DNA of 29,144 nucleotides from positions 1 through 29,144 of the IMG/VR virus record IMGVR_UViG_2737471841_000001. The stretch is one strand, 5' to 3'. The translations under genes were made by a program, and so were the position numbers. Under the pieces are notes generated by a model. It saw only the letters and a list, made by a program, of their open reading frames with translations. It was not told the DNA's origin and ran no database searches. This document shows positions 5,171 through 7,553 of the stretch, piece after piece; position 1 is the stretch's first letter, and every line of letters begins with the position of its first letter. The DNA is from a virus (Duplodnaviria; Heunggongvirae; Uroviricota; Caudoviricetes).

Positions 5171-5355
5171 ACGCCACAATTCAAACGATACCAGAGCTTC
5201 TTATCCAGACACGAGGCAATCAGACTGAAGTGGCAAGGATGCTTTCCTGCGCAAGAGGAACAGTGCTCAAGTACAACCGAGACAGCAAAGGCGAGCGTCA
5301 TGTAATAGTTAACGGCGTCCTGATGGTCAAACAGGGCAAGAGGGGAAGACGATGA
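5167..5355 (+). CDS. ninH: NinH
   Basis: 62 aa, IPELLIQTRGNQTEVARMLSCARGTVLKY resembles lambda NinH; coupled start/stop. Confidence 0.8.
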   Translation: MNATIQTIPELLIQTRGNQTEVARMLSCARGTVLKYNRDSKGERHVIVNGVLMVKQGKRGRR

Positions 5356-5975
5356 GACTCGAAAGCGTAGCTAAATTTCATTCGCCAAAAAGCCCGATGA
5401 TGAGCGACTCACCACGGGCCACGGCTTCTGACTCTCTTTCCGGTACTGATGTGATGGCTGCTATGGGGATGGCGCAATCACAAGCCGGATTCGGAATGGC
5501 TGCATTCTGCGGTAAGCATGAACTCAGCCAGAACGACAAACAAAAGGCTATCAACTATCTGATGCAATTTGCACACAAGGTATCGGGGAAATACCGTGGT
5601 GTGGCAAAGCTCGAAGGAAATACTAAGGCAAAGGTACTGCAAGTGCTCGCAACATTCGCTTATGCGGATTATTGCCGTAGTGCCGCGACGCCGGGCGCAA
5701 GATGCAGAGATTGCCACGGTACAGGCCGTGCGGTTGATATAGCAAAAACAGAGCAGTGGGGGAGAGTTGTCGAGAAAGAGTGCGGAAGATGCAAAGGTGT
5801 CGGCTATTCAAGAATGCCAGCAAGCGCCGCATATCGCGCTGTGACGATGCTAATCCCAAACCTTACCCAACCAACCTGGTCACGCACTGTTAAGCCGCTG
5901 TATGACGCTCTGGTGGTGCAATGCCACAAGGAAGAGTCAATTGCAGACAATATTTTGAATGCAGTCACACGTTAG
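5352..5975 (+). CDS. Q: Late-gene antiterminator Q (lambda type)
   Basis: 207 aa; matches lambda Q as I recall it essentially throughout (MRLESVAKFHSPKSPMMSDSPRATASDS ... CRDCHGTGRAVD ... CGRCKGVGYSR). Confidence 0.95.
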   Translation: MRLESVAKFHSPKSPMMSDSPRATASDSLSGTDVMAAMGMAQSQAGFGMAAFCGKHELSQNDKQKAINYLMQFAHKVSGKYRGVAKLEGNTKAKVLQVLATFAYADYCRSAATPGARCRDCHGTGRAVDIAKTEQWGRVVEKECGRCKGVGYSRMPASAAYRAVTMLIPNLTQPTWSRTVKPLYDALVVQCHKEESIADNILNAVTR

Positions 5976-6017
5976 CAGCATGATTGCCACGGATGGCAAC
6001 ATATTAACGGCATGATA

Positions 6018-6053
6018 TTGACTTTTTGAATAAAGTTGGGTAAATTTGACTCA
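6018..6053 (+). promoter_or_regulatory. pR'-type late promoter with overlapping qut-like region
   Basis: TTGACT (6018-6023), 17-bp spacer, TAAATT (6041-6046), then TTGACTCAACGAT as in the lambda pR' initial transcribed region. Confidence 0.7.
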
Positions 6054-6410
6054 ACGATGGATAAATGCACTCGTTAAATAAAGCCCTGAGTTAATAGCTC
6101 GGGGCTTCTTGCGTTTTAAGCACGACCTTTCTGAAAGCGCATCAAACCAAATACCAGACAGACCAAAATAATCACCTTATCCGCTGTGGCTACGGTGCGG
6201 TGTGCTTTGCATAAAAGAAAACCAGCTCAATGGCTGGCTTCGTGAAAGCGGGTGGCAAGAGGTTGCGCTAACAACCTCATGCCGTTTTGCCCGTGCATAT
6301 CGGTCACGAACAAATCTGATTACTAAACACAGTAGCCTGGATTTGTTCTATCAGTAATCGACCTTATTCCTAATTAAATAGAGCAAATCCCCTCAATGAA
6401 GGGGTAGAGC

Positions 6411-6614
6411 ATGTACCGTATGGACAAAATCAGAGAATGGTTCAGTTACAGCTTCGGAGGACTGACTGCGATGGGTGGCATTCTCTCCCTGAATGACTGG
6501 GCTGTCATCATTGGTATTCTTTGTACTGTCGGCACATTTGGCATCAACTGGTACTACAAGCGCAAAGAGCGCGAGGACAGATTGAATGGCAATGTCACCG
6601 GCACTACGAAATAG
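6411..6614 (+). CDS. Class II holin, pinholin-like, with dual-start motif
   Basis: 67 aa; MYRMDK N-terminus (Met1 and Met4), two hydrophobic segments, charged C-terminus KRKEREDR; directly upstream of a SAR endolysin. Confidence 0.8.
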
Positions 6615-7089
6615 CGTAATAGCGGCGATAAGTGGCGGGGCTATTGCTATAGCATCTGTGTTAATCACTGGGCCAAGTGGTAACGATGGTCTGGAAGGTG
6701 TCAGCTACATACCATACAAAGATATTGTTGGTGTATGGACTGTATGTCACGGACATACCGGAAAAGACATCGTGCTCGGTAAAACGTATACCGAAGCAGA
6801 ATGCAAAGCCCTCCTGAATAAAGACCTTGCCACGGTCGCCAGACAAATTAACCCGTACATCAAAGTCGATATACCGGAAACAACGCGCGGCGCTCTTTAT
6901 TCGTTCGTCTATAACGTGGGCGCAGGCAATTTCAGAACATCGACGCTTCTTCGCAAAATCAACCAGGGCGATATCAATGGCGCATGTGACCAGCTACGTC
7001 GCTGGACATACGCTGGCGGTAAGCAATGGAAAGGGCTGATGACTCGCCGTGAGATTGAGCGTGAAGTCTGTTTGTGGGGGCAGCAATGA
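6586..7089 (+). CDS. SAR endolysin (T4-lysozyme-like muramidase with signal-arrest-release N-terminus)
   Basis: Gly/Ala-rich weakly hydrophobic N-terminus ([20 protein letters not shown]) followed by a lysozyme E-x8-D-x5-T triad ([16 protein letters not shown]). Confidence 0.9.
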
Positions 7090-7553
7090 GCAGAGTCACC
7101 GCGATTATCTCCGCTCTGGTTATCTGCATCATCGTTTGCCTGTCATGGGCTGTTAATCACTACCGTGATAACGCCATCGCCTACAAAGAACAGCGAGATA
7201 AAAAAGTCAGTGAGCTGAAGCAGGCGACCGCCACCATTACTGACATGCAGCAACGCCAGCGTGCTGCTGATGCACTCGATGCTAAATACACGAAGGAGTT
7301 AGCTGATGCGAAAGCTGAAAATGATGCTCTTCGGCGCAAGCTTGATAATGGTGGCAGGGTGCTCGTCAAAGGAAAATGCCCTGTGCCATCCTCAGCCAAA
7401 ACCTCCATCGCCTCCGGCATGGGCAATGATGCCACCGTCGAACTCTCTCCAGTTGCTGGACGAAACGTTCTCGATATCCGGGACGGAATTATCCGCGACC
7501 AAACAGCACTGAGAACGCTTCAGGAATACATCAGGACGCAATGCCTTCGATGA
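7086..7553 (+). CDS. Rz: Rz i-spanin
   Basis: [31 protein letters not shown] resembles lambda Rz; ATGA overlap with endolysin stop. An alternative GTG at 7074 exists. Confidence 0.85.
7306..7512 (+). CDS. Rz1: Rz1 o-spanin lipoprotein, embedded in Rz in the +1 frame
   Basis: Signal peptide with lipobox (LIMVAGC), proline-rich mature part ([11 protein letters not shown]); fully inside Rz. Confidence 0.8.

Follow-up and report, generated by a model that had tools for sequence, protein, structure and literature searches.

A probable P22/HK97-type Q-dependent late-gene switch next to an exchanged two-gene lysis cassette in a P22-like Escherichia coli podophage

Genes and signals of the late region and their relation to lambda

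The window analysed here is the whole 29,144-nucleotide stretch of IMG/VR virus record IMGVR_UViG_2737471841_000001. Taken as a whole it represents a P22-like E. coli podophage, with APC_JM3.2, HZ41, and IME10 as best matches. The genes, predicted regulatory elements, and segments of homology to lambda found between the Q antiterminator gene and the spanin genes are listed in Table 1.

Table 1 Features of the late-gene region and segments aligned with lambda (positions are those of the window)
Feature	Position	Strand	Basis and details
Q antiterminator gene, lambda type, 207 aa	5352..5975	+	PF03589, E = 1e-57, 192 bits
Late promoter pR'	6018..6046	+	Promoter scan: -35 TTGACT 6018-6023, 17-bp spacer, -10 TAAATT 6041-6046
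qut region	6024..6066	+	Q-binding element within the promoter spacer, plus pause element
tR' terminator, P22/HK97 type (predicted)	6081..6117	+	Hairpin AAGCCCTGAGTT-AAT-AGCTCGGGGCTT, then CTTGCGTTTT; terminator scan
Leftward intrinsic-terminator-like element	6213..6241	-	Stem GAAGCCAGC/GCTGGTTTT overlapping T-run TTTTCTTTT; minus-strand terminator scan
Structured non-coding late leader	6238..6410	+	Equivalent to lambda 45015-45181; 95.9% identical (blastn)
sdi-like stem-loop	6389..6404	+	CCCCT-CAATGA-AGGGG; contains holin Shine-Dalgarno; alignments
Holin, 67 aa, class II (two TMDs), PS34/ST104 gp13 type, putative pinholin	6411..6614	+	PF16080, E = 4e-21
SAR endolysin, GH24 lysozyme, R21/RrrD type	6586..7089	+	PF00959; start possibly Met3 at 6592
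Rz i-spanin gene	7086..7553	+	PF03245; 88.7% identical to lambda 45966-46213
Rz1 o-spanin ORF, embedded in Rz	7306-7512	+	Lipobox LIMVAGC
Segment: Q to +23 of late transcript	5342-6075		Lambda 43875-44609; 96.6% (blastn)
Segment: replaced block, 162 bp	6076-6237		Lambda 44610-45014 (405 bp); no identity (blastn)
Segment: leader 5' of S	6238-6406		Lambda 45015-45181; 95.9% (blastn)
Segment: holin and endolysin	6407-7085		Lambda S and R; no identity (blastn)
Segment: 5' half of Rz	7086-7333		Lambda 45966-46213; 88.7% (blastn)

The protein encoded by the Q gene is identical to lambda Q (PDB 7UBM) at 206 of 207 residues, the sole change being L136Q, and belongs to the Q-lambda family (PF03589), which is characterised by an HTH body and a zinc-ribbon arm. 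The late promoter is of the sigma-70 type and begins 43 bases 3' of the Q stop codon, at the position annotated as 'P late' in P22 and as pR' in HK544 and HK140. From the -35 hexamer to +23, an alignment finds no difference between the window and P22; in the spacer between the hexamers, two bases differ from lambda and none from P22. A candidate Q-binding element sits between the -35 and -10 of this sigma-70 promoter, just 3' of Q, and 19 of 21 bases agree with the lambda Qut string quoted in mEp phage annotations. The start-site and qut coordinates were carried over from the P22 annotation (BK000583) via a gap-free alignment, in which the annotated qut corresponds to 6037-6066. The predicted transcript start, derived from the annotated 5' nucleotide of the P22 late RNA, is 6053, and a predicted sigma-dependent pause element, the -10-like AACGAT, occupies 6053-6058 (+1 to +6), with the same bases in lambda. 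The 96.6% match to lambda (J02459, 43886-45186) runs from Q over pR', qut, and the pause element to transcribed base 23. A first-pass annotation of this DNA had described Q and the promoter region as lambda-type, and the protein identity, family assignment, promoter hexamers, and nucleotide alignment all agree with it; by homology, Q, pR', and qut are lambda-type. Lambda Q and P22 gp23 are interchangeable (PMC8022706), and the P22 Q homologue is approximately 99% identical to lambda Q (PMC2629481).

The nucleotide alignment to lambda that the first-pass annotation had proposed places a break in homology at 6076-6237, beyond which homology resumes (6238-6406). A blastn comparison of lambda 44610-45014 with the window gave no match; a lambda-type tR' at about +194 and the 6S body are absent. 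This lambda-only block contains the 6S RNA body, the lambda tR', and LPR2, a recently described Hfq-bound sRNA of lambda (bioRxiv 10.1101/2024.10.31.621285) whose northern probe sequence maps immediately 3' of lambda tR'. The earlier suggestion that the 6S-like short transcript may be altered is borne out: the transcript predicted from pR' is distinct from the 6S RNA of lambda.

Within the 162-bp block found in its place, the short terminator occupies the left end, and a terminator-like hairpin pointing leftward occupies the right. It is 93-98% identical in HK97, HK022, HK544, and mEp phages, and 78% identical in P22. A 180-bp query (6066-6245) that spans most of the block is covered to at least 80% in 89 phage records, compared with only 24 records for lambda's block; of the two, the window's block is the more frequent among the phages collected. 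Phages with lambda-S-type holins, such as HK544 and HK022, align colinearly with all of 5342-6406 at 97%. Because it is colinear at this level with many phages, the approximately 350-bp spacer is, on these alignments, not a fresh recombination scar.

A predicted short tR' terminator and its T-tract

The first-pass annotation had found no proper tR' and left the region unresolved. This view is contradicted by a strong hairpin with a U-rich tail close to the promoter, which has homologues in P22 and Emek. The hairpin comprises 12 bp (6081-6107) and the tail follows directly 3' of it. The fold has a free energy of -18.4 kcal/mol (z = -4.1), and none of 200 shuffled sequences was equally stable. 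The element starts approximately 28 nt past the predicted transcript start and spans +29 to about +65; folding of the predicted 73-nt 5' RNA yields a small 5' hairpin and the tR' terminator. It coincides with the P22 (BK000583) feature 't late or tR'; antiterminated by gene 23 protein action'. The same terminator is annotated as rho-independent in Salmonella phage Emek, where it adjoins the 'EMEK qut site' at an equal distance from the start site. The stem of the short P22/HK97-type tR' (GCCCTGAG/CTCGGGGC) is unchanged in the window and is followed by TTTTTGCGTTTT with one T-to-C difference. A predicted intrinsic terminator therefore separates the pause site from the late genes. It was overlooked because the earlier search was made approximately 170-240 nt downstream, by analogy with the 194-nt 6S RNA of lambda.

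Comparison with phages ES18 and MG40, which have unrelated Q genes and promoters, is consistent with a conserved terminator. Both have the tR' 3' arm, T-tract, and downstream sequence in common with the window, and their 5' arm differs yet still pairs (GCCCTGCA/TGCGGGGC versus GCCCTGAG/CTCGGGGC), with two compensatory pairs. In MG40, homology to the window begins at 6100, within the tR' hairpin. The number of terminator-like sites in the region (5, versus 2.3 +/- 1.6 expected from the scan) is not significant alone. Function as tR' is predicted from homology to annotated, largely predicted features together with conservation of structure. With the terminator placed at 6081-6117, the predicted terminated pR' RNA is approximately 58-65 nt long, and not 194 nt as in lambda. 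A short antitermination-controlled late RNA in P22 goes back to Roberts et al. 1976, as cited in PMC7547250 (ref. 54).

The T-tract of the window tR' is interrupted (TTCTTGCGTTTT). At its third T the window has a T-to-C change, giving TTCTT where Emek, phiKp_30, and PS34 have TTTTT. The window reads GGGGCTTCTTGCG, whereas all aligned relatives except eps34 have CTTTTTGCG or ATTTTGCG. Exact matches in IMG/VR number 115 for the consensus GGGGCTTTTTGCG and 0 for the variant. Since the variant has no exact match there, termination is possibly weaker in this genome, and the substitution may reduce the efficiency of tR'.

Downstream hairpins, the structured leader, and the lysis cassette

Two hairpins farther downstream had been put forward as tR' candidates, and neither retains that role. 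The first (CCAGC-N6-GCTGG at 6222-6237) was said to be without a U-tract, and indeed CTTCGTG comes next, with no T-run. Its T-run is on the opposite strand, and a stronger terminator lies upstream. This hairpin forms the core of the leftward element: because AAAAGAAAA occurs just 5' of it, it is predicted to be an intrinsic terminator of the minus strand, where a canonical hairpin is combined with TTTTCTTTT. It folds at -11.9 kcal/mol (z = -3.7) on the minus strand and at -9.1 kcal/mol (z = -2.2) on the plus strand. The A-run and hairpin are kept in P22, ES18, MG40, eps34, SI8, and an Enterobacter phage, and are absent from lambda. Among the relatives the stem is lengthened by paired C/G insertions, and in SI8 the hairpin persists despite unrelated flanking sequence. 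The element at 6213-6241 thus reads as a leftward terminator or insulator. A scan for minus-strand sigma-70 promoters within 6240-6410 gave none at threshold, the nearest being at 6508-6480 in the holin gene (9/12). The element may mark an unannotated antisense transcript or serve as an insulator.

The second hairpin (GAGGTT-N8-AACCTC) is present as described, at 6259-6278 and followed by ATGCCGTTTTG. It caps a longer helix (GGCAAGAGGTT/AACCTCATGCC, 6254-6283) with compensatory changes, and the leader segment that contains it folds at -26 kcal/mol (z = -4.3). The GTTTTG after it forms an internal loop and reads TGATCTG at the same place in P22-type leaders. The leader helices comprise 6239-6245/6303-6309 (the closing TTCGTGA/TCACGAA), 6248-6253/6290-6295 (GCGGGT/GCCCGT), which stacks with 6254-6264/6273-6283, and 6340-6349/6381-6390. 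The leader was detected in 185 phage records. In an RNAalifold structure of eight leaders, 97.5% of cells are paired, compared with 35-46% when the partners are slid, and seven pairs have compensatory changes, compared with at most one when slid. With two or three lineages sampled, this constitutes moderate evidence for conservation of the leader structure.

No conserved ORF was found across the leaders. A 51-aa ORF at 6202-6357, listed as 'hypothetical protein' in HK140 and others, was dismissed as a gene because in P22, ES18, eps34, and MG40 the reading frame is disrupted or displaced. A small hydrophobic minus-strand ORF (approximately 6189 to 6130) was considered as a type I toxin and rejected; the P22-type sequence has a stop codon in its N-terminal part. 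Searches of Rfam returned nothing for the whole window at gathering thresholds, and only a chance match (ncr1175, E = 2.2) for 5900-6500 at a permissive E-value. No tRNA genes were detected in the window, in lambda, or in two IMG/VR spacer variants.

Tentatively, the approximately 170-nt leader (6238-6410) can be viewed as a functional structured RNA module absent from Rfam and not as mere spacer, although we consider this possibility somewhat doubtful. If so, the long irregular helix at 6239-6309 would be a candidate for RNase III processing or for stabilising the RNA. Daniels et al. (1988, cited in PMC7547250) reportedly described RNase III sites in the late leader of lambda. The 10-bp helix abuts the hairpin that would mask the holin ribosome-binding site, and together with 6239-6309 it may tune lysis-gene expression.

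At the end of the leader, the stem of the sdi-like hairpin (6389-6393/6400-6404), which includes GGGG, is placed as the lambda sdi stem, and its pairs covary across phages (UA, CG, UG). As an isolated fold its stability is not unusual (z = -0.2). The last 167 bp of the lambda S leader match the window at 95.9%, including the position of the sdi-type hairpin.

The lysis genes had been described as other than lambda S and R, in keeping with the PF16080 holin and the R21-like SAR-type GH24 endolysin identified here. The holin begins with a dual-start motif (M-Y-R-M at 6411-6422, with ATG at 6411 and 6420). Together with the stem-loop 5' of it, this motif may allow holin/antiholin control of the lambda S kind. 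Its score against the S21 family (PF04971), 19.5 bits, is below the cut-off of 26, placing it outside that family. Homologous holins are annotated as such in Emek, PS34, and MG40. The two-TMD architecture and pairing with a SAR endolysin suggest that it may be a pinholin in function. The endolysin is approximately 95% identical to R21/RrrD, with matches to PDB 3HDE and 4ZPU (E = 1e-105 to 1e-106) that start from residue 3. These alignments are full-length and include the N-terminal SAR segment, which points to an R21/RrrD-type SAR endolysin.

The left joint of the holin cassette falls at 6394-6413, through the loop of the sdi-like hairpin, with homology to HK544 and lambda stopping at 6406. 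The right joint coincides with the endolysin stop and Rz start codon (7086). Because the joints fall in the hairpin loop and at the start of Rz, the holin and endolysin genes form a two-gene cassette that was swapped precisely at the gene borders, and not at a joint within the spacer. The first-pass annotation had placed a probable recombination joint between lambda-type and other modules in this interval. Mosaic joints are present in the interval, but the joint of the lysis genes is at the extreme right end of the spacer. Mosaic exchange of holin and lysin types has been described in P22-like phages (PMC2629481).

Relatives, mechanism, and alternative readings

The arrangement as a whole is already known from annotated GenBank records. 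Salmonella phage vB_SemP_Emek, in which qut site, terminator, holin, and lysin are all annotated, matches the window colinearly over the Q-to-endolysin stretch (5352-7092) at about 97.5-97.7%. Over the same genes Klebsiella phage phiKp_30 is colinear at 98.3% and phage PS34 (AJ011580) at about 93.5-94.1%. All three diverge from the window in the Rz region, where Emek has an additional small ORF. The Q-to-endolysin arrangement is also present in VSe13 and in 23 complete E. coli genomes. Among approximately 82 IMG/VR contigs with a lambda-type Q and the window-type terminator, about a quarter (20) have the 67-aa holin. The remainder comprise 53 with lambda-S/P22-gp13-type holins and 9 that were unclassified by key-word match, six of which were inspected and are S-type variants.

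Other relatives have parts of this arrangement. P22 (BK000583, 37186-37945) agrees with the window in promoter, qut, first 23 transcribed bases, terminator stem, T-tract, and start-site spacing, and also has the leftward hairpin and structured leader. However, its terminator loop differs, its mid-spacer is approximately 78% identical overall, and in place of the 67-aa holin and SAR endolysin its holin is lambda-S-like (gp13) and its lysozyme of the T4 type (gp19). The HK97/HK022/HK544 group has Q, pR', short tR', spacer, and leader as in window 5342-6406 (approximately 97%), but its holin genes are of the lambda S type and its endolysin genes of the lambda R or HK97 type, and homology stops in the hairpin that precedes the holin start. 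Lambda differs in being without the leftward hairpin and in having its own S and R, which are replaced in the window. Phage 21 shares an endolysin approximately 95% identical (R21) and a small holin with two TMDs and a dual-start motif, but its holin family is S21 (PF04971) and not PF16080 (the HP1 family), and its Q is unrelated (Q21 family).

Taken together, the interval is very probably a complete late-gene switch that depends on Q and follows the conventional P22/HK97 sub-type. From the homologies, breakpoints, hairpins, and conservation, we infer an active promoter, pausing, the efficiency of termination, the action of Q, and the type of holin; the Q-lambda loading mechanism itself has been established for lambda (PMC9388147). 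RNA polymerase would initiate constitutively at pR', at about 6053, and pause at about +16/+17 when sigma-70 re-binds the -10-like AACGAT. Without Q, transcription would terminate at 6081-6117 and release an RNA of about 60 nt. With Q present, Q would bind between the -35 and -10 and load on the paused polymerase with NusA. The loaded Q would form an exit-channel nozzle that blocks formation of the terminator hairpin, so that polymerase would read through tR', cross the structured leader, and enter the genes for lysis and morphogenesis.

Two alternatives concern the integrity of tR'. If a recombination joint had disrupted it, any termination would have to occur at 6222-6237 or 6259-6290, where the hairpins are degenerate. 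Both hairpins are present, the second is followed by GTTTTG and carries a 'terminator' annotation in Salmonella phage MG40, and lambda's own tR' sequence is missing. However, the far stronger upstream terminator is homologous to the annotated tR' of P22 and Emek, the T-run of the first hairpin is on the other strand, and the second lies inside further conserved, compensating pairs, with its GTTTTG replaced by TGATCTG in P22-type leaders. As the whole spacer is also colinear with many phages, we regard disruption as highly improbable and already largely refuted. Alternatively, tR' could be genuine but leaky in this genome owing to the rare T-to-C change, in which case tight control of the lysis genes would need back-up elements. 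These could be partial termination at the leader hairpin and its GUUUUG (6254-6289), RNA processing, or sequestration of the holin ribosome-binding site. The lack of exact matches to the variant in IMG/VR is in favour of such leakiness, as are the very stable leader stem and the short U-run that follows it in lambda-type leaders. Tandem terminators 3' of lambda pR' were reportedly described by Luk and Szybalski in 1983, which fits the same picture. However, the hairpin is unaltered, T occurs at 8 of the 12 bases past the G+C stem, and a single distal U-tract substitution often has a modest effect on termination. A leaky tR' seems unlikely.

A further reading concerns the product of the switch and would supplement the Q-switch explanation, not replace it. 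The approximately 60-nt pR'-tR' RNA could bind Hfq in lysogens and act in trans as a small RNA, like StxS of Shiga-toxin phages. The constitutive activity of pR' in lambdoid lysogens is consistent with this, as is the binding of StxS and lambda 6S RNA by Hfq (PMC7547250; bioRxiv 10.1101/2024.10.31.621285). The predicted RNA has an AU-rich UAAAUAAA adjoining its U-tailed terminator hairpin, and its sequence is strongly conserved. However, a promoter, qut, and terminator packed into 65 nt explain the conservation equally well, and the RNA matches no Rfam family. We consider a trans-acting role quite unlikely.

Beyond correct annotation, the significance of a conventional Q-dependent switch at this locus is slight: the terminator is predicted approximately 30 nt past the pR' start, and the late RNA would be approximately 60 nt long in place of 194 nt. 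The lambda sRNAs 6S and LPR2 are missing from this genome. The region represents textbook lambdoid mosaicism, in which the lysis cassette was exchanged exactly at gene boundaries. Minor leads are the rare T-to-C change in the T-tract and the conserved structured leader with its adjacent leftward terminator, which no RNA family covers. If the leader is indeed a functional RNA, then this element, 95-99% conserved among phages that differ in Q type and have at least two types of holin, would be a homologous linker for the exchange of lysis cassettes.

A conserved structured leader upstream of the holin gene

The late leader that precedes the holin gene is a conserved structured RNA. It contains three helices and an sdi-like hairpin, shows compensatory change at 7 pairs, and is common to phages that differ both in Q type and in holin type; it has no match to a family in Rfam. 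By its appearance, the long helix of the leader could be a substrate for RNase III. Between tR', the short late terminator downstream of pR', and the leader lies a leftward element resembling an intrinsic terminator. This element is kept in P22-, HK97-, ES18-, ST104-, and SI8-type phages, whereas lambda lacks it, and no leftward promoter or transcript for it to terminate was found.

Features from tR' to the endolysin start
Feature	Position	Strand	Description
tR' T-tract	6108-6112	+	T-to-C change, TTCTT vs TTTTT
Hydrophobic short ORF	6130-6189	-	~16-19 aa, ending RFQKGRA; upstream of tR' hairpin in minus-strand reading
Short ORF	6202-6357		51 aa, GTG start; annotated 'hypothetical protein' in HK140, mEp234, Sf101, and ECP1
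Leftward terminator-like element	6213-6241	-	hairpin plus TTTTCTTTT; conserved
Late leader	6238-6410	+	structured RNA
Long helix of leader	6239-6309	+	possible RNase III substrate
Endolysin candidate starts	6586-6592	+	M-A-M

Short reading frames, tR', and the endolysin start

Two short ORFs in this region were considered as genes and rejected. Since the frame of the 51-aa ORF is not kept across P22-type leaders, this annotation is probably a spurious call over structured RNA. A toxin peptide gene on the minus strand is unlikely because, in comparison with P22-type sequences, only the C-terminal codons are conserved and a stop codon interrupts the N-terminal part.

IMG/VR yields no exact match to the T-tract variant of tR' and 115 to the consensus, suggesting that the terminator might be leakier in this genome. 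Of the two candidate endolysin starts, the second Met, at 6592, is probably the true one (giving a product of 165 aa), since the alignment to R21 and RrrD, both proteins with solved structures, begins there.

The lambda-only block and mosaic boundaries

Positions 1367-1453 of the lambda locus L001 (about lambda 44866-44952), which belong to the 405-bp block that lambda has, and the window lacks, between tR' and the S leader, show a match of ~83% to genes annotated as tRNAs in rV5-like phages. A further 58% of the block has a 95% match to the tRNA-Thr/Asn region of phage Kapi1. Because ARAGORN detected no intact tRNA in the block, lambda may hold a decayed tRNA remnant at the site occupied by tRNA genes in Sf6 and phage L.

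Some relatives with the same tR' (IMG/VR loci L065, L053, and L040) have added genes or other sequence, and the insertions in such relatives abut the 3' end of the conserved motif TTAAGCAC, at the end of tR', or CTTCGTGAA, at the start of the leader. From these comparisons, both short conserved strings appear to be repeatedly used mosaic boundaries.
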